Assembly (NCBI GenBank): GCA_048937405.1
Contig: JBHLNF010000001.1
Coordinates: 160,001 to 224,000, forward strand
Direction: 5' to 3'
Length of the DNA stretch: 64,000 nt
From: Promethearchaeota archaeon
GTDB lineage: Archaea > Asgardarchaeota > Lokiarchaeia > Sigyniarchaeales > SOKP01
The notes beneath the pieces were generated by a model, which did not search any database, had not been told where the DNA came from, and worked only from the letters and a program-made list of their open reading frames with translations. Position numbers and translations under genes: made by a program. Shown piece by piece: positions 30,889-54,895 of the stretch (position 1 is its first letter; every line of letters starts with the position of its first letter).

Positions 30889-32007
30889 TTGAACGCTAAG
30901 GAACTTTGGAATTTCAAATACAATGCCCCTATTCTTGGAATTGAATTATGTGATATCAATAACAATGGAAAGTTAGAAATTATTGCTTTTACTAAAAATG
31001 GGATGTTATTATTCATATCACTTGATGGGAAATTGTTGCATAAAGAATTAGTATCGAAAAATTCACCACTTTGGCATATGAGAATACATGATATTGATAA
31101 TGATGGAAGACATGAATTAGTATTAGGTGGAATGGATGGAATATTAAGAATTTTTAAATGCAAATCTACTTATAATTTGGAACCTTTCTGGATACATAAA
31201 TTTAATTCCTCTATTAGCGGAATTCTAATAGAAGACATAAACGATAATAACTTCAATGAATTGATTATATTTTCACTTGATAAAACTTTAAGAGTTTTAA
31301 ATTCCTTAGATGGTAAATTAATATGGGGACAGATTTTTCAAGATGGTATAGCAGATGCGATAGTTTTTAAAAATAATAAAAAACATAATCATAAAGAAAT
31401 ATTAGCATGTGGAAATGACGGAACTATCAGATGCTATGAAGGGGTCAATGGAAAATTATTATGGTTTAAAAAATATTCTGATAAAATGCGAGTTATTACT
31501 TATATGAACACCATTAAGGGACAATTAGTTTTATCTGGAGGGGATGATAAGAAGCTTCATGTTTTAAATAAATTAACTCAAAATGAAATTAAGACTTTAC
31601 AATTTAATAATTATGTTTGGAAGTGTGTATCTTATCCATTTCCAATCTTAAATAATTGTCTAGTAAGTTCTTATTCATTTGCTTATTTTAATGAATCGAT
31701 ACAAATTAAAAATATTGAATTTACTTCAAAATTAGCTTGTTTTAATGAGTCTTTTAATACAAAATGGGACTTAAATGGCTATAATATTGAATGTTTAAAG
31801 ATAAGAAAAATTTATGAGAGAATTCTTATTATTGTTGGTACTACTAAAGGAAACCTTTTGATTATTGAAGAAGAAACAGGAAAAATAATATTTTTTGGAA
31901 ATTATAGTTCTTGTATAAATATGACTCAAATATGTGAAGAACAAAGACTAATTTTTACATGCCATGATAATGGAACTATTATTGCTCATCATTTGGAAAA
32001 AACGTAA
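30889..32007 (+). CDS. FG-GAP/WD40-like beta-propeller protein
   Basis: Repeats DINNNGKLE, DIDNDGRHELVLGGMDGILRIF, DINDNNFNE, GNDGTIRCY, GGDDKKLHV. Confidence 0.7.
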   Translation: MNAKELWNFKYNAPILGIELCDINNNGKLEIIAFTKNGMLLFISLDGKLLHKELVSKNSPLWHMRIHDIDNDGRHELVLGGMDGILRIFKCKSTYNLEPFWIHKFNSSISGILIEDINDNNFNELIIFSLDKTLRVLNSLDGKLIWGQIFQDGIADAIVFKNNKKHNHKEILACGNDGTIRCYEGVNGKLLWFKKYSDKMRVITYMNTIKGQLVLSGGDDKKLHVLNKLTQNEIKTLQFNNYVWKCVSYPFPILNNCLVSSYSFAYFNESIQIKNIEFTSKLACFNESFNTKWDLNGYNIECLKIRKIYERILIIVGTTKGNLLIIEEETGKIIFFGNYSSCINMTQICEEQRLIFTCHDNGTIIAHHLEKT

Positions 32008-39693: not shown

Positions 39694-39713
39694 TAATTAG
39701 AATAAAAAAAAGT

Positions 39714-39869
39714 GTGAATATCTATGACAAATACCATAGCAGATGCTTGTTGTGCCCTTAAAAATGCAGAAAGAGCACGTAAAAAGGAAGTTATTATTAG
39801 CCCTGCTTCTAAGGTTCTTCAACAAATTCTTCGAATATTCCAAAGACAAGCATATATTGGAGAATTCGA
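39714..39869 (+). repeat. Left copy of a 156-bp imperfect direct repeat (uS8 RBS + first 49 codons); partner at 54740-54895
   Basis: Direct comparison gives 5 mismatches (tct/att in the spacer, ACA/CCA, CTT/CTC, GGA/GGC). Confidence 0.97.
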
Positions 39870-39885
39870 AGTCTGTTTATTATAA
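39724..39885 (+). pseudogene. rps8: Truncated 5' fragment of uS8 at the canonical position after uS14
   Basis: MTNTIADACCALKNAERARKKEVIISPASKVLQQILRIFQRQAYIGEFE then VCLL*; matches the intact copy except T2/P2. Confidence 0.93.
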
Positions 39886-40245
39886 ATATTTTAAAACTAA
39901 ATTTCTAAACTCCTGTACTTTTATAGGTTTTGATATATATTGATTAAAACCAGATGACATAATACGTTCCTTATCTCCTTTCATTGCAAAAGAAGTTACA
40001 GCAATTATTGGTATATCTTTGAATTTTTCGATTTTTCTTAAATTTGAACAAATTTCTGTACCGTTCATTTCTGGTAATTGAATGTCTAGAATAATTAAAT
40101 CTGGATTACCTGATTTGATTAATTCAAATCCTAAATCACCTCTAGTTTCTTCAAAAATTTCAATATCGGGTATTAAATTTAAAATTGCTTTAAATAGCTT
40201 CATATTTTTTTCATTATCCTCAATAACATACACACTTTTTTTCAT
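39880..40245 (-). CDS. Single-domain response regulator (CheY/DivK-like receiver)
   Basis: IEDNEKN, LIILDIQLPEMNG, AVTSFAM, YISKPI. Confidence 0.93.
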   Translation of the reverse strand: MKKSVYVIEDNEKNMKLFKAILNLIPDIEIFEETRGDLGFELIKSGNPDLIILDIQLPEMNGTEICSNLRKIEKFKDIPIIAVTSFAMKGDKERIMSSGFNQYISKPIKVQEFRNLVLKYL

Positions 40246-40401: not shown

Positions 40402-41949
40402 TTAAGGACAAAATTTTAATTTTAGTTCTTGAGCTATATTAGCCATTTTATTTAGTTCTTCATAATCTTTTTCAATTATTGATTTCATGATATCAACCTT
40501 TAACTTTTTAATTTTTTCAAGAGTAATAGAAAATTCTTTATTAATATCCTCATATAATTTGTCTATGTTGCTATAAAGAAGTTGAGCTTGATTTTTATCA
40601 ATAATCTCAGAATTAATTATCTTTCTTTGATAAAAAGTATTTAATTCTTCTAACCAATTCCTTCCAATTTCTCCTATTGGTAGTAGATCATCGATTTTTC
40701 CTGTATTTAGCCCCATTTCAAATTTATCCTTATATTCATCGAATAAATTCCTGAAATAATTGTTAATTTTATTTTCAATGGCTTCTAAGTTAATATTAGG
40801 ATTCATAAAAAGAGTTACAGTATAATTATTATAACTAAAAATATGCATTTTTAAATTACTTCCTCTCAAACCAAAACCGGTTAAATCCTGAATATTTAGT
40901 TCCAAAGAAAATTTCTCCAACGCACTTATAAACATTGGAATCAATTCAAGATCAATTGGAATTATACTATCATCATTTGGAACACTTTGAGAAATATAAT
41001 CTTTAATAGCATTATCATATAATTCAAAATTTAATAACGATAATCCATCTTTATCTGATATTATTGCTCCTATGATCCCTGAATTTTTTTCTTCAGTCGG
41101 AATTTCTAATAAAGGAAAATTTCTCTCATCTTTATCATTTGAGACGGAGAAAAAATTCTCCAAAACTTTTTTGTATATTACCTTACCTTTATTCGTTAAA
41201 CTTAGAAGTGATTCATTTTTTACCTCTTTTACTTCAATATGACCTTTATTAATTAAATTTTCAACTAAATAATTTACCAATTTCTCAGGACGATTCAATT
41301 TTTCATAAAGAATATCTTTAGCAATAATTACATTTTTATCAATTTGATGTATGATTTTCAATGATTCATCAACCATATTCAATAATAATCCTTCATTAGG
41401 TAAGACATCTTGAAGGCAAGTTTTCATAATTTCAATGAAATATGAAAAAGTCTGATGAAAGTATTCCTTTTTCAAACTGGTAAATCGAAAATTTATTAGA
41501 GTATCATTTGAGAAACTATTCTTAATTATCGATCTAATTTCTCTGATTTTCTTTTCACTTACCAAATCTATTTTATGTAATAATACAAAAATAAAGGTGG
41601 ATGGAGTAAGATCATTTCTTAAATCAATAACTTTTCTTACAAAATTAATGATCTCATCATTATTAGATTTAATGTCAATTACTACCAATATTAGTTTAGT
41701 GTCATAAAAAATTCTTTTTTCATCTGTTTCAAGCCATCGTTTATTTTCTTGACCAGCTAGATCAAATATACCAATATCTTCATTTAAACCTGGTAATCGC
41801 AATATTAATGATTCTTCTCCATATGTTGGGTCTAAAGCATATTCTAGTAACTTAGATGAACTTTCTCCTTCAAAAAAGACTTTACGAAGGGTTGTTTTCC
41901 CAGCATTTGGTGGTCCTACAAATATAATTTTTTTTCCTATTTTGATCAC
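40402..41949 (-). CDS. Rag/Gtr1-like small GTPase fused to a winged helix and a longin/roadblock-like domain
   Basis: G1 GPPNAGKT, G2 PTYG, G3 DLAGQ, G4 HKID; wHTH-like LVENLINKGHIE..LSLTNKGK; GAIISDKDGLSL..LIPMFISALEKFSLE. Confidence 0.75.
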   Translation of the reverse strand: MIKIGKKIIFVGPPNAGKTTLRKVFFEGESSSKLLEYALDPTYGEESLILRLPGLNEDIGIFDLAGQENKRWLETDEKRIFYDTKLILVVIDIKSNNDEIINFVRKVIDLRNDLTPSTFIFVLLHKIDLVSEKKIREIRSIIKNSFSNDTLINFRFTSLKKEYFHQTFSYFIEIMKTCLQDVLPNEGLLLNMVDESLKIIHQIDKNVIIAKDILYEKLNRPEKLVNYLVENLINKGHIEVKEVKNESLLSLTNKGKVIYKKVLENFFSVSNDKDERNFPLLEIPTEEKNSGIIGAIISDKDGLSLLNFELYDNAIKDYISQSVPNDDSIIPIDLELIPMFISALEKFSLELNIQDLTGFGLRGSNLKMHIFSYNNYTVTLFMNPNINLEAIENKINNYFRNLFDEYKDKFEMGLNTGKIDDLLPIGEIGRNWLEELNTFYQRKIINSEIIDKNQAQLLYSNIDKLYEDINKEFSITLEKIKKLKVDIMKSIIEKDYEELNKMANIAQELKLKFCP

Positions 41950-43260
41950 TTAAATTTTTTTATTGAAGTAATATATATTTTTTAATTTTTGTTTGATTTG
42001 ACCAATTGTCCAAATTAATTTATTTGCACTAAGAGTTTCTGAAAAACAAACTAAATTTTTAAGATTAAATTTTTGATAATTCAAACTGTTCATAATAATA
42101 TTCAAATTAGAACTTGAGAGAATTAAATGTTCAATTCTATCATTTTTAGATACATTTTCGAAAGTTTTATTTAATTGGGTTATAAGTTTATGCGAATGAT
42201 TGATAATTATCGTGTTAAAATCTTTCGTAATAGATTGTGCTACTATACTATCATTTAAATTAGTAATAAAAAACATAGTTTTTGAAAAATTTGATATCAT
42301 ACTATCCAACAGGTTCTTTAAGTGAAAAGTATATTTTGAAAAATTGCTTAATAATTCATAAAATGCATTATAAAGGCTATAAATTAAATTTGGATAAATA
42401 CTTGTATAATAAATAGACACATCAAATTTCATTTTTAAAATGTTTGTAAGGTCTTTAAGATACTCTTTTCTAGATCCTTTCTCTATTAAATCAATTTTAT
42501 GGATGAAAAGAATTAGTTGAGCAGTATAGGAGTTATCTTGTAAAATTTCAATGACTTGTTTGATATCCTCCATGATTAATTGTTCATTTGTAATCCATGT
42601 TGGATAATCAAAGAGATATACTATAAAGTCAGTATTCTCAAATGCTAGAATTTGGTCATTATTTTTATTATTTTCCAGAAGTTGACTGAGTTCTTGTCCA
42701 GAAGAATCAAATAAACCTACCTTCAAATCTAACCATGAATAAACTGATGGCGATATTCCTCGAGTCGGTTCTAAAGGATTTGTTATTAAATTTATTGGAT
42801 CATATCCTTCAAAGACAATTTTCTTAATAGTTGTTTTTCCTGTACCTGGTCTACCAATTATCAATATCTTTTTAGCTGAAGACTTAATAAAAAAAGTATC
42901 AATTTTCTCTTGGAAATATTTTTTTTTATCATCTTCAGATTTTCCTAAGAATTTTCTGGCAAATTTAATAAATTCAGATTTTTGATTATATAAATTAATC
43001 TTTTCTTTTTCTTCCAGTATAATAAGAATTATTTCATATCCAATCTCAGAAACTTTTGATTTATCACAATAACTAAGTATAATATTATCTTTATATGTAA
43101 TTTCAATTAACTCACCCTTCTTAAAATCATCTTCATAGGAATGAGTCATATATATTTTATTGATTAATTCATCCGTTAGTTTTAATTCTAAAGGATATTT
43201 CAGCTCAAGCGTAGCACCCATTTTAGTATCCCAACTAAAAAACGCTAAACCTTTAACCAT
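41950..43260 (-). CDS. Rag/Gtr1-like small GTPase with N-terminal longin/uDENN-like and C-terminal roadblock-like domains
   Basis: N-terminal FFSWDTKMGATLELKYP; GRPGTGKT, LEPTRG, DSSGQ, FIHKID, YYTSIY; C-terminal MFFITNLNDSIVA. Confidence 0.75.
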   Translation of the reverse strand: MVKGLAFFSWDTKMGATLELKYPLELKLTDELINKIYMTHSYEDDFKKGELIEITYKDNIILSYCDKSKVSEIGYEIILIILEEKEKINLYNQKSEFIKFARKFLGKSEDDKKKYFQEKIDTFFIKSSAKKILIIGRPGTGKTTIKKIVFEGYDPINLITNPLEPTRGISPSVYSWLDLKVGLFDSSGQELSQLLENNKNNDQILAFENTDFIVYLFDYPTWITNEQLIMEDIKQVIEILQDNSYTAQLILFIHKIDLIEKGSRKEYLKDLTNILKMKFDVSIYYTSIYPNLIYSLYNAFYELLSNFSKYTFHLKNLLDSMISNFSKTMFFITNLNDSIVAQSITKDFNTIIINHSHKLITQLNKTFENVSKNDRIEHLILSSSNLNIIMNSLNYQKFNLKNLVCFSETLSANKLIWTIGQIKQKLKNIYYFNKKI

Positions 43261-43266
43261 TAAATC

Positions 43267-45411
43267 TCAACTCTCTATTTTTTCTTTTAATTTTTTAGTT
43301 ATAGTAAAAGTAAATGTTGATCCTGTACCTAATACGCTATTAAATGTTATACTTCCTCCATGTAATTCTACAAGCCTTTTGGTTAATGATAATCCAAGTC
43401 CGGTCCCAGGAACAGAGCGTACATATGTAGAATCTACTCTTTTAAATTCCTTGAAGATCAGAGAAAAATCTTTTTGATCTATTCCAATACCTGTATCATT
43501 TACTTTAAAAACCCATTGACCATATTTTTCTTGTATTTTTACTGTAATTTGACCTTCAAGAGTAAATTTAATAGCATTACTTAAGAGATTCAATAAAATT
43601 TCTTTGAATCGAATTGGATCTGCATAAATATATTTTTTTTCATCTAATCCTTTAATCTTTAATTTAAGGTTCTTTCTATTATACATAGGCTTTAAGCTTG
43701 ATTTAATTTGTTCAAATATGTTATTTAATGAAACCTTTTGAATATTCAAGTTTATTTGTCCAGATTCTATTTTTGATATATCTAAAATATGTTTAATCAT
43801 ATCAAATTGATGTTCTGCAGAATTTTTTATATCGGTAACAAATTCCTTTTGTTCATCATTTATTTGACCATAAACACCCTCTAATAATAAATCAGAAAAT
43901 CCAATAATAGCATTTAAAGGAGTCCTTAATTCATGTGACATTGTAGCCATGAATTCTGTTTTAAACTGAGAAGACTTTACTATTTGATCCATGTATAATT
44001 TCTGCTGTTCAAGGGTTTTATTTAACTCTTTAGTTCTATCCTGAACTTTTTGTTCTAATTCATCTTTAAATTTCTCTTCTAAAAGTTCTGAGGTCTTTTT
44101 TTCAGTAATATCTTTAAAAATCAGTTGAAATAGAGTTCCAGGCTTCTGTTTTATAATAGAAGCTTGAATTTCAACCCAAATACTTTCTCCATCCTGTTTT
44201 TTTAACTCAACCTCAACAGGTTTTGGAAAATTATTTTCAAAATTGGCATGAAAAATTTTCTTAAAATAAAGCTTAACTTCAAAAGGAAAGAAGTTGATAA
44301 GCTCATCTATTGATTTTTGAATAAAATAATCCCTTTCATAACCAAATATTTTGTCTGTAGTAAAATTAGCATCAACAACAATTCCATTAAAGTTTATTAT
44401 TAATATGGCATTTGGTGAGTTATCAAATAAATCTTTGTATCTTTTTTCAACAAAAATTTGATCAGTTATATCCCTCGAAATAACAAGAATTCTCACTTGC
44501 CCATCTTTATTTATAAAATTTTTAAAATTACATTCATGCCATAGCCAATGGCCCTCTTTATGTTTAATTCGCAATTTTATAGTACTTTTTTCACTTTTTA
44601 ATGGATCTTTTAATAATTTTGATATCTTTCCTTTATCTTTTGGATGAAGAAAATCCAGATATGATTTTTCCAATATCTCTTTCTTTTTGTATCCTAGCAG
44701 TTTAAATGCTATTTTTTCATTAAAATATTTAACTATTAATTTCAAACTAAGAATTATGATTAAATCATTTATATTTTCTTCAATGCGAATATGTTTCTCT
44801 TCTGATTCTTTCAACATTTTTTTTATTATATAATGTTCTATACCATTTCCAATAATTTGTGAAGATAATCGTAAAATTGATAACTGTGTCTCATTCGACT
44901 CTTTATGTATTGAATCATTTAAATATCCAATAAATCCTGCTAAGTCTTTTCTAATATATAGTGGAAACACCAATAGAGATCTGATATTATTAAGATTTAA
45001 TAACCTTTTTGTAGCTTTTGCTTCATCAGTTAAACTAGAAATATCATAAATATTGATAATTTTTCCTTTTCTAAGTTGATTATTCCACCATGGAAATTTT
45101 AAAAGCCATGAATTGTTAAAGTATTCAAATAACGGTTTAATTCCTTTTGCACACCATTCATACGTATTTTTTAAATTAATCTCATTAAAATTAATAATAT
45201 ATAAAACAACCCGACTCGCTTTGTTTAAAAACCCAATATCACGTAATGTAGCATTAATAATATCATTAATCTCGATATCTCCAAAGAATCGAGATGAAAT
45301 TGTTGAAATCAAAGTTTCTAAATCTGACCAAAATTGAACCAGACATTTTACATTTTGTTTTACATCATTTTTTTCTCCAAAAATATTTTCTTTGTTGTGA
45401 ATTCCACTCAT
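43267..45411 (-). CDS. Cytoplasmic sensor histidine kinase (GAF-PAS-PAS-HisKA-HATPase)
   Basis: NTYEWCAKGI GAF, FLHPKD PAS, MSHELRTPLNAIIGF, NLLSNAIKF, DTGIGI, GTGLGL. Confidence 0.93.
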   Translation of the reverse strand: MSGIHNKENIFGEKNDVKQNVKCLVQFWSDLETLISTISSRFFGDIEINDIINATLRDIGFLNKASRVVLYIINFNEINLKNTYEWCAKGIKPLFEYFNNSWLLKFPWWNNQLRKGKIINIYDISSLTDEAKATKRLLNLNNIRSLLVFPLYIRKDLAGFIGYLNDSIHKESNETQLSILRLSSQIIGNGIEHYIIKKMLKESEEKHIRIEENINDLIIILSLKLIVKYFNEKIAFKLLGYKKKEILEKSYLDFLHPKDKGKISKLLKDPLKSEKSTIKLRIKHKEGHWLWHECNFKNFINKDGQVRILVISRDITDQIFVEKRYKDLFDNSPNAILIINFNGIVVDANFTTDKIFGYERDYFIQKSIDELINFFPFEVKLYFKKIFHANFENNFPKPVEVELKKQDGESIWVEIQASIIKQKPGTLFQLIFKDITEKKTSELLEEKFKDELEQKVQDRTKELNKTLEQQKLYMDQIVKSSQFKTEFMATMSHELRTPLNAIIGFSDLLLEGVYGQINDEQKEFVTDIKNSAEHQFDMIKHILDISKIESGQINLNIQKVSLNNIFEQIKSSLKPMYNRKNLKLKIKGLDEKKYIYADPIRFKEILLNLLSNAIKFTLEGQITVKIQEKYGQWVFKVNDTGIGIDQKDFSLIFKEFKRVDSTYVRSVPGTGLGLSLTKRLVELHGGSITFNSVLGTGSTFTFTITKKLKEKIES

Positions 45412-45476: not shown

Positions 45477-46166
45477 TCATTCACAATGATCTTTGGGAAA
45501 TTGTTCTTCAAGAGCTTTCATAATATCGTTGCAAGAATCCAAGATCATGTTAATGTAATTCATAATCTCAGGTCTAGATATTTTTCTATTTATATTTTGA
45601 TCTATTATTAACTCACCAAATCCTCGAATTGTGTTAATTCCACTCCGAATCTGCATATTTATGGATTCTAAAGGTAGGATTTCATCTTTTTGCATATAAA
45701 TCTTATTTATTTCTTTAATAAAATTCTCAAATTCATTTTTATCATCAGACAAAATTTTATTACGTTTAATTTTATGAAAAATCATTCCAATTTTTTTGAA
45801 ATGAAGTATTGGTATTATAGAATAGCCAACATCCCGAAGTAGTATTATAGCATATAATTGTTTTCCTCCCCTTGCTGATAAATCCTCTATTTCGATCTTA
45901 TAGATTTGGGCATAAAAATTATTAAAATCTAATATAACAAATTGATTTTTAGTATTTAGCGCGTCTCTTAAAAGATTTTTTACAAATTCTTCATTTTTCA
46001 GAGGAATTTGAGAATATAGGGCTCTTGGACCTAATGTATGATCATATTTTCCAATAATCATAATAAAAGGATATTTTTCTAAATTATGCTTAAGAGTTGA
46101 ATAAATATCAAGATTTTCCTCTTCACGTTTATTTTTAAATTGGATATCTTTTATAATTTCTTTCAT
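45477..46166 (-). CDS. Folliculin/SMCR8-like longin domain fused to a degenerate, His-less HisKA-like domain
   Basis: YDHTLGPRALY and IEDLSARGGKQLYAIILL; C-terminal INMQIRSGINTIRGFGELI aligns with SHELRTPLNAIIGFSDLL of the neighbouring kinase. Confidence 0.62.
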   Translation of the reverse strand: MKEIIKDIQFKNKREEENLDIYSTLKHNLEKYPFIMIIGKYDHTLGPRALYSQIPLKNEEFVKNLLRDALNTKNQFVILDFNNFYAQIYKIEIEDLSARGGKQLYAIILLRDVGYSIIPILHFKKIGMIFHKIKRNKILSDDKNEFENFIKEINKIYMQKDEILPLESINMQIRSGINTIRGFGELIIDQNINRKISRPEIMNYINMILDSCNDIMKALEEQFPKDHCE

Positions 46167-46375
46167 TTTTTTTCCATGTAAATTAAATGATATATACTAA
46201 ATCTTAAGAATAAAAAAATCCTTATTGAAAGAAGTTTTTTATCCTTAGAATGATTTCTAAATTAATTGGAAAAGAATTGATATTTAATCTTTACTATTTA
46301 ATAAAGTGTATGAGTTATTAGGAAAAAAAAGAAATTTTTGTACAAATTTATATAATAGAAGCATATTAATAATTT

Positions 46376-47860
46376 ATGTCGGAATCCGCAAATACTATTA
46401 TAAAATATTTCTGCGATCGCTTTTTAGATATTGAATACTATCCTTCTAATTTGAAGGCAATTTTGGATTTTGATTTGCATAAAATAAAAAATATTAAAAA
46501 AGAAGATTTGCTGAAATTCCAGAAATTTAATATAAAAACCTTTCGAGATCTATGTAATTTAGATCAATCTGATTATGATCGGTTGATAAATCATTCATTT
46601 ATAGAAAAAAATCTACTAAATAATATTATTATTGCAGCAACTTTAATTGCTAATTCATGGAATAAAAGAAGTATTTACTTGAATAAACCAAAAATGAAAG
46701 TTGTTGTGGCTGGTCTTGATTTTGCAGGTAAAACATCTTTAATTAATAGATTGATTCACGATTATAACTACAATGATATGAATAATATTGAGCCAACAAT
46801 AGGGACAAATATAGAAGAATATCACTCAAAATGGCTGAATTTAATATTATGGGACTTAGGTGGCCAAAAGGATAATATAAATGAATATTTAGAATCTCCA
46901 GAAAAATTTTTTGTACAATTAGATGTTTTAATTTTTGTCATTGATGCCCAAGATGATAATAGATATAATGAAGCGGTTCGTTATTTGAATGATTTAATTG
47001 AAATATTTACATTTTTAAATGAAAATCCATATATCCTTGTATTGATAAATAAAGTAGATTCTGATATAGCAGAGGATCCAGATTTTCAAATTAAACTTGA
47101 ATATTTAATGGATAAAATAACTAATATCTTTATTAATAGTCAAAAATCATGGAATTTTGAGCTCATACCTACAAGTATCTATAATTTTTATTCTTCAGAA
47201 CCCGAGATTGCTAAAAGCATTAAAAAAATCTTTACAAAAGAAAAATCAGAAACACATTTGGATACTATAACGGAAATTAATGAGAAATTAGAAAGAATTT
47301 TAAATATAAACCTAGAATTAATGGATAAAATAGTATCTGATTTTTCCAAAATAAAACAAACCTTATTTAGATTTACACACTCTAATGTTTCTCAATCACT
47401 ATTTAACATTCCAATTCAGGATGTTCCCTGCAAGAATAGTTTTGATAAACAAAAAACAAATCAGAAAGATAGGACAAAGAAAAAAGAATCGAAAAAAAAA
47501 GAATTAAAAAAGAGAGAAAGAATAAAAAAAGTTATAGGTCCCCCGAAACGTTTAGAATCTATTATATCACCAAATGAAATTACACAAAATATAAAAAATA
47601 ATCATAAAATTACTGAAGAAAAATTGAAAGAAATAAAAAACGATTTAACCCCAACTCCTAAATCGTCTGATTTACGATCAACCCCACCAATAGCTCCTAA
47701 AAAAGGTTATTTAAGTAAAGCTGATCTTAAACCTCCACCCCCGCCACCAAAAATTGCAATTAAAAATGATACTTCATTACAAGGGAATAGAAAACAAATT
47801 ATTTCAGAATTAAAGGAATTATTTATAAGAAGAGGGTTAGTCCCTCATAAAAATATTTAA
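46376..47860 (+). CDS. Arf-like small GTPase with N-terminal helical domain and a long Lys/Pro-rich C-terminal tail
   Basis: VVAGLDFAGKTS, EPTIG, WDLGGQ, FVIDA, NKVD; PPPPPK near the C-terminus. Confidence 0.82.
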   Translation: MSESANTIIKYFCDRFLDIEYYPSNLKAILDFDLHKIKNIKKEDLLKFQKFNIKTFRDLCNLDQSDYDRLINHSFIEKNLLNNIIIAATLIANSWNKRSIYLNKPKMKVVVAGLDFAGKTSLINRLIHDYNYNDMNNIEPTIGTNIEEYHSKWLNLILWDLGGQKDNINEYLESPEKFFVQLDVLIFVIDAQDDNRYNEAVRYLNDLIEIFTFLNENPYILVLINKVDSDIAEDPDFQIKLEYLMDKITNIFINSQKSWNFELIPTSIYNFYSSEPEIAKSIKKIFTKEKSETHLDTITEINEKLERILNINLELMDKIVSDFSKIKQTLFRFTHSNVSQSLFNIPIQDVPCKNSFDKQKTNQKDRTKKKESKKKELKKRERIKKVIGPPKRLESIISPNEITQNIKNNHKITEEKLKEIKNDLTPTPKSSDLRSTPPIAPKKGYLSKADLKPPPPPPKIAIKNDTSLQGNRKQIISELKELFIRRGLVPHKNI

Positions 47861-48400: not shown

Positions 48401-50746
48401 ATGCGGAAAAAAATTCAATCATTAGAAAAATTCAAAATAAAAAATAGACCTTTTAATCATAATATTTTAGAGGTTATAGTAGAAATAAATCTAGATGGAA
48501 AGTTTATTTGTTTTAGTCCACAGGTTTATGATCTTTTCGGTTTTCGACCAAAAAAGTTAATCAAGCTAAATGAACAAAATTTCATCCATCCAGAAGATTT
48601 ATCACTTTATAGAGAAGTAATTGATAAGGTAAAAAACTTTAAAGAAACATTTATTGTAGATTTAAGAGTGAAGCACAATAAGGGATATTATGTCCCAATT
48701 TCATTAAAGGTTAATTTAATCTTACCTAATAATACAAAAAAAATAATTGGTATAATAAGAGATATTTCAGATATCAAAATTTCCAAGTTAAAATTTAAAG
48801 AATCTAAAGAGAAATATCTAAACATTATCAATAATATGATGGAAGGATATTTTGAAATTGATCTTAAGGGAAATTTTTTATATGCTAATGTGTATTTCTG
48901 TAAAACATTAAATTATTCTAAGGAAGAATTAATAGGAAAAAATTATCATTTTATTTATGAAAAAAAGACATGCGAACGTTTATTTAATATATTCACCCAA
49001 ATATATAAGACAGGGATACCTCATCCTCCAGAAGAAGTAATTAAAGTGGTAACAAATAAGGGTAAACTATTATATGTTGAAGGATCTATTCATTTATTAT
49101 ATGATTCTGAAGGATATAAGGTTGGATTTTATGGCTTAGCTCATGATACAACAAAAGAGATAAAAAACAATCAAAAATTAAAAGAATTCGAATTGAAATA
49201 TAGCAATATTCTCGAAAATATGATGGAAGGGTATTATGAAACTGATCTTAGGGGAAATTTTATATATGTTAATGCTGAGTATTGCAAAATTTTGGGATAT
49301 TCAAAAAAAGAATTATTAGGAAAGGATTATAGAACCTTTTATAATGTAGAGGGATTGAGTAATTTACAGAGTATTTTTACCAAAATATATAAAACTGGGA
49401 TACCTCACGCTCCAACAGGATTAGTAAAATTGGTGACAAAGAAAGGTAAACTTATATATTTTGAAGGTCCTGTTGATTTAATATATAGTTCGAAAGGAAA
49501 AAAGATAGGATTTTATGGGCTTATTCGTGATATAACAAAAAGAAAAATTGCGGAACAAAAATTAAAAGAGTCCGAAGAGAAATATCGAAGCATACTCGAA
49601 AATATGATGGAAGGATATTATGAAGTGGATTTAGAAAACAATATCATTTTTTTTAATGATTCTTTTAATAAGATATTAGGACATCCAAAAGAGAAATTAT
49701 CAAATGAAAAATTTGATTGGTTTTTAAGTTCTCATAGTAAAAAGAGATTTTCCTTACTTTTTAATAATTTATTAGAGAATAAAATGTCATTTTTAATTTC
49801 CCAGTTTGAAATAATAAATCAAAAAGGAGAAATTATAAATGTCGAAACTTCAATATATCAAAAACAAGATATGAAAGGAAATATAATCGGATTCGGAGGA
49901 TTATTGCGGGACATTTCTGAAAGGATGCAAATCGAAGAAATGAGAGAAGAATTTACTGAAGAACTCCAAAATCAAGTAGTTCAAAGAACTCAGGAACTAA
50001 ATGAAGCATTAGAAAAGCAAGAATTATACATTCAAGAGATATTGAAGTCTTCTCGTTTTAAAAGCGAATTTATGTCTGTGATGTCCCATGAGCTGAGGAC
50101 ACCTATGAATGCCATCATAGGTTTTTCTGATCTTTTGATGGAGGGGGATTTTGGTCAACTTAATGAAAATCAAAAAGACTTCTTATATGATATAAAAGGG
50201 TCTGCTAACCACTTACTAAATATAATTAATCATATACTTGATATCTCGAAAATAGAGTCAGGTAATTTGAATTTGAAGATAAAAAAGATTCAACTGGATA
50301 TAGTTATAAAACAAGTCAAAGGAACACTTAAAACTTTATTTGATAATAAGAATTTAACATTTAAGGTGATTGGGTTGAAAAAGAATAAGGTTATCAATGT
50401 AGATCCTATAAGGTTTAAAGAGATTCTTTTCAACCTATTAAGCAACGCAATTAAATTCACCTTAAAAGGAATTATTACTTTGAAAATTTCTGAAGATGAG
50501 ATGCTATGGAAATTTGACGTGATTGATACAGGTATTGGTATAGCTAAGGAAAATTTAGGGTTTATTTTTATGGATTTTAGAAGAATTGATGATCCCCATG
50601 TAAATTCAACAGAAGGAACTGGACTTGGCCTTTCTGTTACAAAAAGACTAGTCGAGCTCCATGGTGGAAGTATCAGTTTTACAAGCGAATTTGGGAAAGG
50701 ATCTACATTTTCCTTTACAATTCCTAAAGATTTAAAAGAAGGGTAA
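48401..50746 (+). CDS. Cytoplasmic sensor histidine kinase (4x PAS-HisKA-HATPase)
   Basis: Repeated NMMEGY.E.DL PAS starts; MSHELRTPMNAIIGF, NLLSNAIKF, GTGLGL. Confidence 0.93.
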   Translation: MRKKIQSLEKFKIKNRPFNHNILEVIVEINLDGKFICFSPQVYDLFGFRPKKLIKLNEQNFIHPEDLSLYREVIDKVKNFKETFIVDLRVKHNKGYYVPISLKVNLILPNNTKKIIGIIRDISDIKISKLKFKESKEKYLNIINNMMEGYFEIDLKGNFLYANVYFCKTLNYSKEELIGKNYHFIYEKKTCERLFNIFTQIYKTGIPHPPEEVIKVVTNKGKLLYVEGSIHLLYDSEGYKVGFYGLAHDTTKEIKNNQKLKEFELKYSNILENMMEGYYETDLRGNFIYVNAEYCKILGYSKKELLGKDYRTFYNVEGLSNLQSIFTKIYKTGIPHAPTGLVKLVTKKGKLIYFEGPVDLIYSSKGKKIGFYGLIRDITKRKIAEQKLKESEEKYRSILENMMEGYYEVDLENNIIFFNDSFNKILGHPKEKLSNEKFDWFLSSHSKKRFSLLFNNLLENKMSFLISQFEIINQKGEIINVETSIYQKQDMKGNIIGFGGLLRDISERMQIEEMREEFTEELQNQVVQRTQELNEALEKQELYIQEILKSSRFKSEFMSVMSHELRTPMNAIIGFSDLLMEGDFGQLNENQKDFLYDIKGSANHLLNIINHILDISKIESGNLNLKIKKIQLDIVIKQVKGTLKTLFDNKNLTFKVIGLKKNKVINVDPIRFKEILFNLLSNAIKFTLKGIITLKISEDEMLWKFDVIDTGIGIAKENLGFIFMDFRRIDDPHVNSTEGTGLGLSVTKRLVELHGGSISFTSEFGKGSTFSFTIPKDLKEG

Positions 50747-54007: not shown

Positions 54008-54739
54008 CCTTAACTAAAAAACAAGAATGATTATAGAATAATAGAATTAATATTTAAATTTAGCCATATTTGTCAGGAATAATTAGCAAACAAATAAATA
54101 CAACTCTTCTCAAATTTCAAGATTGTTATTAATTAACTTATTTCTTCCTATTTTTGTCTAAAAAATAATTTTAGATAATTTATAATAATATCTTCAGTTT
54201 TTAAGCTTTTTAAGAGTAAAGGAAGATTAAATAAGAATCTTGGATTAGTATCAATATATTAGACAAGTTAATAAACATTTTTGGTTATAATAAGAATAGA
54301 AGAGAAATTATATAAAATAAAATTTGAGTTAACATTGGATTTCGCCCTCTATTAACCTTAAAGTAGGTTATTCTCCTCCTCACATTTTAAACTCAAGTTT
54401 TTTCTTCCCTTCTCCTCAAGTTTTAAGATAAGGTTGTTAAGTAGAGATAAATCCTAATATGACTCTTTCAATGTTTAGATCCTTGTTTCTAGGTCAAGCG
54501 CAATCAAATTTTTATTACTGGAAAGAAAAAGCAAAAGAAGATAATTAATTTTTTCTAATTAAATAATTTTTAAGTTTTATGGTTTTATTTTAGATTTCAA
54601 TATCAATTAATAAAATTAAAATTTAATCCATTACTAATTAGAACAATACGGAGTAATGGATGGAAAAAACTAAAATAATAATTCTGGATATTGTTCCTGA
54701 TTTTATTAATTAAAATAAGATAAGAAATTTTAGGAAAGA

Positions 54740-54895
54740 GTGAATAATTATGCCAAATACCATAGCAGATGCTTGTTGTGCCCTCAAAAATGCAGAAAGA
54801 GCACGTAAAAAGGAAGTTATTATTAGCCCTGCTTCTAAGGTTCTTCAACAAATTCTTCGAATATTCCAAAGACAAGCATATATTGGCGAATTCGA
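54740..54895 (+). repeat. Right copy of the 156-bp rps8 5' repeat
   Basis: Matches 39714-39869 with 5 mismatches. Confidence 0.97.

Follow-up and report, generated by a model that had tools for sequence, protein, structure and literature searches.

The 64,000-nucleotide (nt) stretch analysed here, hereafter the window, corresponds to positions 160,001 to 224,000 of contig JBHLNF010000001.1 of a Promethearchaeota archaeon (Lokiarchaeia; Sigyniarchaeales). It is AT-rich, with about 27% G+C, and carries archaeal ribosomal-protein genes alongside genes that encode Rag/Arf-like GTPases, PAS kinases and receivers. The gene located at 45477-46166 on the minus strand starts with ATG and encodes a protein of 229 amino acids (aa), P0001, which is built of an N-terminal helix, a predicted longin domain of the folliculin (FLCN)/NPRL2 type and a HisKA-like (DHp) helical hairpin without histidine. 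This longin-DHp gene is present as a single copy in the genome of the window. A word-indexed search retrieved 218 homologues of P0001 at E ≤ 1e-3, with Lokiarchaeota or Promethearchaeota as their source names, and an exhaustive search of 1.84 billion representatives gave 28 clusters at 50% identity; thus, the family is small and compact. Among 399 Asgard genomes, the full-length architecture appears only in the family of the window and in two sister families of the same Lokiarchaeia order. Column conservation was counted over 131 full-length homologues, and their existence, the invariant motifs and the absence of stops rule out that 45477-46166 is a pseudogene or a chance open reading frame.

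The longin domain spans residues 32-160 (45687-46073, minus strand) and was delimited by an AlphaFold2 model, a fold search and Pfam. The model (predicted local distance difference test, pLDDT, 77; predicted template modelling score, pTM, 0.60) shows the longin order of elements between residues 35 and 159, i.e., two strands (35-42 and 46-52), a helix (59-70), three strands (76-80, 84-94 and 102-112) and two helices (120-131 and 143-159). In an all-against-all structural search, the top solved fold was NPRL2 (8fw5_B; Z 13.6, root-mean-square deviation (rmsd) 2.9, 135 residues aligned), followed by a Lokiarchaeal longin (8yqg_B; Z 12.8) and yeast Npr2 (8adl_S; Z 12.6). FLCN (6nzd_H) matched with a Z of 11.9 and an rmsd of 2.8 over 127 residues, and the longins of SNARE, adaptor, TRAPP, Mon1 and DENN proteins had Z values of at most 10.4. 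The top Foldseek matches were GATOR1 and FLCN chains. The neighbours of the P0001 model in the ESM Atlas include a Heimdall Folliculin-like cluster, NPRL2, SMCR8, C9orf72 and Promethearchaeota longin-GTPase fusions; the scores of the ESM Atlas feature search were all below 0.9 and are leads at best. The sole longin family matched in Pfam was Folliculin (PF11704; residues 75-151, E 0.0015, 18.8 bits), a model that matches all 21 scanned family members at E ≤ 1 (best E 3.8e-5) and that reaches 29.8 bits, above its gathering score, in a paralogue of another class (L024). A single-sequence search of the PDB with P0001 gave nothing useful. The initial annotation of the gene had proposed a folliculin-like longin, and the topology of the model, the Pfam matches and the presence of NPRL2 and FLCN among the best solved folds agree with that proposal, so the N-terminal fold, as modelled, is a longin of the FLCN/NPRL2 class. 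Neither Pfam nor the fold search detected a DENN domain in P0001, whose chain ends at residue 229 with the DHp hairpin.

The longin domain contains two motifs. The GP motif, Y41-D42-H-T-L45-G46-P47-R48 (46023-46046, minus strand), stands at the start of strand 2, with an aromatic-Asp pair ahead of it, and is almost invariant among the homologues: D42 and G46 are found in 131/131, P47 in 130/131 and Y41 in 129/131. The arginine-finger motif, D95-L-S-A98-R99-G100 (45867-45884, minus strand), occupies the loop between strands 4 and 5 and is conserved to a similar degree (D95 128/131, A98 120/131, R99 129/131 and G100 130/131). Both strings quoted in the initial annotation, IGKYDHTLGPRALY and IEIEDLSARGGKQLYAIILL, are present in P0001, and the Arg99 codon, which it had placed correctly, is AGG (45872-45870). 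The FLCN strings that it had cited also exist: PDB chain 6ulg_L reads FFIKDSLARGFQRWYSII at residues 156-173, where the arginine is R164, and IVALCHFCELHGPRTLF at residues 4-20, where the GP of HGPRTLF is G15-P16. Both regions align without gaps, with I93, D95, A98, R99, G100, Y105, I107 and I108 of P0001 on I158, D160, A163, R164, G165, Y170, I172 and I173 of FLCN, and I35, G46, P47, R48 and L50 on I4, G15, P16, R17 and L19. The offset of the GP alignment is 31 and equals that at the start of the structural alignment (model residue 33 on FLCN residue 2). On the basis of this alignment, the conserved Arg99 is collinear with R164 of FLCN. The Y41-D42-x-x-L-G-P-R string is in turn collinear with W33-D34-N-I-L-G38-P39-R40 of C9orf72. 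The combination of GP motif and arginine finger has been described as specific to GTPase-activating protein (GAP) longins and as shared by some Asgard longins (Traffic 2025, PMC12290439).

The pseudo-DHp hairpin (residues 165-222; 45501-45674, minus strand) consists of two helices in the AlphaFold2 model (167-192 and 198-222) and was recognised by fold and profile matches. It carries a remnant of the H-box, S168-I-N-M171-Q-I-R174-S-G-I-N178-T-I-R-G182-F183-G (45615-45665, minus strand), with Met171 (ATG, 45656-45654) at the position of the phospho-histidine. The best solved match of the hairpin was the DHp domain of HK853 (5uht_A; Z 7.9, rmsd 2.3, model residues 166-229 on chain residues 255-317), and Met171 would fall on His260 of HK853 if that alignment is gapless. 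When a profile of the last 70 residues, built from 18 members, was compared with the PDB, the three best matches were DHp domains of histidine kinases (E 1.1e-4, 0.0019 and 0.0029), with the Leu/Met column of the family aligned to the histidine of SHEIRTP. An hhalign comparison of the C-terminal profile with the DHp domains of 11 kinases from the window and related loci gave 96.9% probability in the same register, and the Pfam HisKA model matched 2 of 21 members (best 0.0038). The C-terminal residues Q172, R174, S175, G176, N178, I180, G182 and F183 are invariant or nearly so. Judged from these profiles, the hairpin (residues 165-222) is genuinely homologous to HisKA (DHp), with its phospho-acceptor replaced, as the initial annotation had supposed from Met171. 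P0001 ends 58 residues past Met171, 7 past the second helix, and Pfam detects no HATPase_c in it; the protein therefore lacks an ATPase domain, again as supposed, and is HisKA-homologous yet not a kinase.

Of the 131 homologues, 86 have Leu, 38 have Met and 4 have His in the column of Met171. The His-bearing members (P0130, P0133, P0145 and P0148) are the most divergent of the family; two of the four have the canonical H-box string S-H-x-x-R, and the arginine finger is missing from P0130 and P0133. Because the domain descends from HisKA, we infer that the ancestor had the histidine and that the main clade lost it; a tree of 30 family members has poor resolution and long branches, so that the order of the loss is not shown by the tree. 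These divergent relatives suggest descent from a phosphotransfer protein of the Spo0B/ChpT type, and they illustrate how an adaptor of this kind could arise from such a protein. The family of P0001 also has in common with 11/11 neighbouring kinases the residues N, G, F and L at positions +7, +11, +12 and +15 from the histidine, which we take, from work on EnvZ and HK853, to be the positions of helix 1 that face the receiver.

Related hairpins occur in two other contexts. P0141 (556 aa) is membrane-anchored and contains six tandem His-less HisKA-like hairpins (S-F-[NK]-L-R-T...G-F), in which Phe replaces the histidine; this is a further use of dead DHp modules. P0136 (196 aa) combines a polytopic membrane N-terminus with the last 85 residues of the family, i.e., the DHp only, and is either a genuine fusion or the product of chimeric gene calling.

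In the window, the longin-DHp gene is the first of a run of five minus-strand genes separated by gaps of 65, 6, 0 and 156 nt. It is followed by a GAF-PAS-PAS-HisKA-HATPase sensor kinase identified by Pfam (43267-45411), a RagA/Gtr1-like GTPase of 436 aa (41950-43260), a second Rag-like GTPase of 515 aa that abuts the previous gene (40402-41949) and a stand-alone receiver that ends the run (39880-40245; Pfam Response_reg 9e-24). The 436-aa protein, a candidate partner or substrate of P0001, has an N-terminal GAP-class longin and a C-terminal roadblock region, and its nearest solved chains are human RagA (5e-15) and Gtr1 (1e-10). The 515-aa GTPase, a candidate substrate, matches Pfam Gtr1_RagA (4e-14) and, in the PDB, Gtr1/Gtr2 (1.6e-8 and 3e-6). 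The receiver is a candidate docking partner of the pseudo-DHp. On the other side, an AT-rich intergenic region (46167-46375) separates the longin-DHp gene from a divergent gene on the plus strand (46376-47860) that encodes an Arf/Rag-like GTPase of 494 aa (Pfam Arf 7e-24, Gtr1_RagA 1.3e-22), which is another candidate substrate and whose nearest solved chains are LokiRagO (8yl2, 1.5e-18), LokiRagM and then Arl3/Arf1. Residues about 340-494 of this GTPase form a Lys-rich, proline-rich tail (PPPPPPPK) that is partly kept in L003 and L012. The entire signalling island, which lies inside a ribosomal-protein operon, is flanked by the two copies of a 161-nt direct repeat (39709-39869 and 54735-54895; 96% identical, 15,026 nt apart). 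Given this bracketing repeat, the island appears to have been inserted, with duplication of the 5' end of uS8 in the process.

The genomic context was compared in 19 loci from different genomes (the window, L001, L003, L005, L006, L007, L009 and L012-L023). A Rag/Arf-like GTPase gene is immediately adjacent to the longin-DHp gene in 14/19, and a GTPase or a two-component gene is next door in 19/19, including L007 and L009, whose proteins are relatives of 20-30% identity. The same types of neighbour genes are found in L003/L004, L001, L005 and L007, with orthology established by BLAST. Orthologues of the 494-aa GTPase adjoin the longin-DHp gene in most loci; 10 of 12 further species genomes have this type as the divergent gene, as do L003 and L007, and orthologues of the 515-aa GTPase are present in L001, L003, L007 and L009. 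Directly downstream, 8 of the 12 further genomes have a gene for a short Rag-like GTPase, and the other 4 have a kinase gene. A kinase comes directly after the longin-DHp gene in the window, L003, L005, L013, L014, L018 and L020. The short GTPase, of about 293 aa and with a winged-helix-like tail, is encoded in L012 (2164-3045, plus strand) and likewise in L015-L017, L019 and L021-L023, where it starts 27-60 nt past the longin-DHp stop, in the place of the kinase. Receivers are encoded near the longin-DHp gene in L003, L005, L006, L007 and L014. In L006, a His-bearing member stands amid hybrid kinases and receivers, and in L009 a PAS-longin-DHp variant adjoins a GTPase of the 515-aa type.

Paralogous Asgard arginine-finger longins, recognised by the motifs [FY]D..LGP and D..ARG, occur as stand-alone proteins in L025 and as fusions elsewhere. 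L027 (270-1310, minus strand) and L028 (400-1617, minus strand) encode proteins of 346 and 405 aa in which the arginine-finger longin and an Arf/Ras-type GTPase form one chain, and in L026 (1-1230, minus strand) the longin is fused to PAS-PAS; PAS fusions are also found in P0132 and P0135. Following the Rosetta-stone argument, these fusions suggest that longins of this class act on small GTPases and receive sensory input.

We propose, with moderate confidence, that P0001 is most likely an arginine-finger regulator of the GAP type for the co-encoded Rag/Arf-like GTPases, and that its pseudo-DHp provides a surface for dimerisation and for docking to a receiver or kinase. This proposal is drawn from the conserved gene neighbourhood, the domain fusions of paralogues and analogy. 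Arg99 would enter the nucleotide pocket of a neighbouring GTPase, like R164 of FLCN with RagC. The pseudo-DHp would pair into a four-helix bundle and thus yield a platform of two longins, such as the one that eukaryotic GAPs build as DENN heterodimers; alternatively, the second longin could be the C9orf72-like domain (W-D...G) of the RagA-like GTPase. Since the receiver-facing N, G, F and L are kept, the pseudo-DHp may dock a receiver or kinase without being phosphorylated, and in this way GAP activity would be tied to the phosphorelay. A more detailed version, in which the His-less DHp reads the phosphorylation of the receiver or pairs with the adjacent kinase and so gates an Arg99-dependent GAP activity on the Rag-like heterodimer, with the C9orf72-like longin of the 436-aa GTPase as the second longin, is in our opinion doubtful. 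If such a scheme is true, a His-Asp phosphorelay would be directly and physically coupled to a small-GTPase cycle, and prokaryotes would possess a forerunner of the FLCN/GATOR1-Rag nutrient axis in which sensor kinases take the place of the eukaryotic nutrient sensors. The initial annotation had already proposed P0001 as a GAP connecting the two modes of signalling: its longin class, Arg99 and His-less DHp stand, and GAP activity and two-component docking are putative, with weak support from one complex prediction.

That prediction concerned the possible second longin. The N-terminal longin of the 436-aa GTPase (residues 1-125) was modelled with a pLDDT of 88, and five folds, those of a Loki longin, Lst4, NPRL2, C9orf72 and FNIP2, come equally close to it (Z 10.6-11.1). 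All 17 homologues compared keep its residues W10, D11 and G15, which have the spacing of W33-D34...G38 of C9orf72, and a deep relative (L007 8155-9438) reads W-D-D-A-I-G-P. With the WD side on this longin and the Arg99 side on P0001, a two-longin platform is conceivable. The complex of P0001 residues 28-165 and residues 1-308 of the 436-aa GTPase with GTP and Mg scored 0.35, with 0.00 for the best control, which is weak support; the runs had at least 94% contact agreement and a partner pLDDT of at least 80, and no interface was reported. In the calibration of the method, 58 of 80 solved complexes reached the mark, as did 2 of 110 mismatched pairs, and the passes at ≤ 0.60 comprised 7 of the 80 solved complexes and both mismatches that passed. 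Most passes at such low scores would therefore be false, unless the pairing was probable beforehand, and the prediction raises the odds of this pairing slightly.

Other functions can be considered for P0001. The signal might flow in the opposite direction, with P0001 as a regulator of the two-component system and not a GAP: the longin would be an effector of the GTP- or GDP-bound Rag/Arf-like GTPase, and the His-less DHp would form a dead heterodimer with the adjacent kinase or sequester its receiver, so that the state of the GTPase controls the output of the kinase. DivL, a pseudokinase whose DHp senses the state of DivK, would be the model. The position of the longin-DHp gene 26-66 nt upstream of a same-strand PAS kinase in the window, L003 and L005, and the kinases that come directly after it in L013, L014, L018 and L020, are consistent with this possibility. 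Moreover, the H-box remnant is almost as conserved as the longin motifs, the N, G, F and L residues are common to the kinases, and DivL, which gave a weak match to the C-terminal profile (E 0.57), shows that a DHp can be repurposed (PMC4211667). However, this direction of flow leaves unexplained the near-invariant GP and arginine motifs, which are marks of GAP longins and are absent in non-GAP longins (PMC12290439), and in 8 of the 12 further genomes the gene directly downstream encodes a Rag-like GTPase and not a kinase, so we regard it as unlikely. P0001 could also be a nucleotide-exchange factor or a passive GTPase platform, like TRAPP, Mon1-Ccz1 and DENN proteins, in which the arginine has a structural role. 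Longin and roadblock dimers are indeed mainly platforms for guanine nucleotide exchange factors (GEFs) (Tran et al., 2024, PMC10933270), the preprint of Liu et al. (2020) (10.1101/2020.10.19.343400) proposes a GEF role for the Asgard FLCN-like module, and the arginine is absent in two members of the family. We find this quite improbable, given that the closest solved longins belong to three GAP complexes and not to GEF longins, and that the GP motif and the arginine finger have been reported together in the GAP class only (PMC12290439).

It can also be argued that the pseudo-DHp is a homodimerisation module and nothing else, like P3 of CheA, and that kinase genes lie nearby merely as a result of their genomic abundance. 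CheA P3 is a dimerisation domain, DHp is in general an obligate dimerisation module, as is established for HisKA, and PAS kinases are plentiful in Lokiarchaeial genomes, where several loci have GTPases on both sides of the longin-DHp gene. Nevertheless, the surface-type H-box residues Q172, R174, S175 and N178 are conserved beyond the needs of a hydrophobic core, some relatives keep the histidine beside receivers and hybrid kinases (L006 and L007), and in 19/19 loci either a GTPase gene is adjacent or two-component genes lie no more than a few kb away, which together make this explanation very unlikely.

Several observations weigh against the GAP-type regulator that we favour. The 18.8 bits of P0001 lie below the gathering score of PF11704 (23.3), and the longin-domain profiles retrieved no FLCN or NPRL2 chain from the PDB sequences; with the whole-family and longin-only profiles, FLCN, NPRL2 and SMCR8 were all missing and the matches were at the level of chance (CheY-like proteins, dopachrome isomerase and a proteasome subunit), so that the sequence tie to folliculin rests on the Pfam model and the motifs. 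The arginine finger is replaced in two divergent members (Glu in P0130, Lys in P0133), and thus the equivalent of Arg99 is not essential in every branch. Eukaryotic GAP longins are DENN-bearing heterodimers, and P0001 has no DENN. Regarding the C-terminus, helical hairpins are common and a Z of 7.9 is therefore not distinctive by itself, and the N, G, F and L residues are general to this HisKA subfamily and single out no partner. The longin-DHp gene is also patchy within its own genus and absent from many complete genomes, which fits the insertion reading of the 15-kb island; taken together, the patchiness and the repeat-bracketed insertion indicate that the gene is accessory and not core. Finally, we know of no Asgard longin of this class with a measured activity.

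Compared with known systems, P0001 resembles FLCN (the GAP of RagC/D in FLCN-FNIP2; PDB 6NZD, 6ULG and 8DHB) in its longin fold, its GP motif, the string D-x-x-A-R-G-x4-Y-x-I-I and its Rag-like neighbours. It differs from FLCN in its length (229 versus 579 aa), in having neither DENN nor the long insert between strands, and in the aromatic-Asp pair ahead of the GP motif, as in C9orf72, where FLCN has F10-C11; no FNIP-like partner gene was recognised. NPRL2, the RagA/B GAP of GATOR1, is its best structural match (Z 13.6). C9orf72-SMCR8, an Arf1 GAP, offers a parallel in the YD-x-x-LGPR string, similar to that of C9orf72, and in Arg99, which would correspond to the SMCR8-type finger; unlike this complex, P0001 has both features in one chain, without DENN and without WDR41. 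By analogy, then, P0001 resembles FLCN, NPRL2 and SMCR8 and, lacking DENN, is not a full member of their architecture. In its HisKA-type hairpin with a replaced phospho-acceptor it is similar to the DivL pseudokinases (PMC4211667), with Met or Leu where DivL has Tyr, and it is also comparable to CheA P3 and Spo0B/ChpT, in which a DHp serves dimerisation or relay only. P0001 differs in lacking any ATPase domain, in the fusion of its hairpin to a eukaryote-type longin and in its restriction to one Lokiarchaeia order.

The initial annotation overstated the novelty of this architecture, since many Asgard fusions of NPRL2-like longins with two-component domains had been reported earlier by Liu et al. 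(2020) (bioRxiv 10.1101/2020.10.19.343400, Fig. 5c). The class described there covers the architecture of P0001 in kind; as far as the accessible part of that preprint goes, the loss of the histidine, the conservation of the arginine and GP motifs in this subfamily and the tight pairing with Rag/Arf-like GTPase genes are not described in it. Likewise, Asgard longins of the FLCN/SMCR8 type with both motifs in the same structural places as P0001 have been presented as possible GAPs for ArfR or Rag GTPases (Traffic 2025, PMC12290439); that set comprises 15 mostly Heimdall-type longins, and the paper is silent on gene neighbourhoods and on any kinase-derived domain. Literature searches for an Asgard longin with a histidine kinase, for a longin with HisKA and for the LokiRag names gave nothing relevant. 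The fusion class (Liu et al., 2020) and the occurrence of the GP and arginine motifs in Asgard longins (PMC12290439) are thus already published. What is new here is that the two-component portion proves to be a DHp whose histidine was lost, with relatives that still bear it, that the catalytic-type motifs are near-invariant in this subfamily, that the RagA-like neighbour bears a C9orf72-like motif, and that the gene is tightly paired, across the order, with three defined GTPase families.

The pairing of regulators and GTPases is of particular value in these organisms. Asgard archaea have dozens of small GTPases and of longin or roadblock proteins. Genome layout seldom reveals which GTPase a given regulator serves (Tran et al., 2024, PMC10933270), and the longin-DHp family is an exception, with a folliculin-type arginine-finger longin beside a RagA/Gtr1-like pair and an Arf/Rag-like GTPase in an order of Lokiarchaeia. 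Three candidate substrates and one point mutant (R99A) would bear on whether the GAP activity of longins predates eukaryotes. The kinase-derived hairpin offers a handle on the idea, put forward by Liu et al. (2020), that growth signalling in Asgard archaea runs through two-component systems together with eukaryote-type regulators.

Two further features of the window were recorded outside the five-gene run. A plus-strand gene at 30889-32007 encodes a beta-propeller protein of 372 aa that matches the Pfam models of BBSome subunits Beta-prop_BBS7 (9.8e-12) and BBS2_Mid (3.5e-11). At 48790-49714, within the kinase gene located at 48401-50746, there are three tandem repeats of 384 nt, 67-76% identical, which are duplicated PAS domains.

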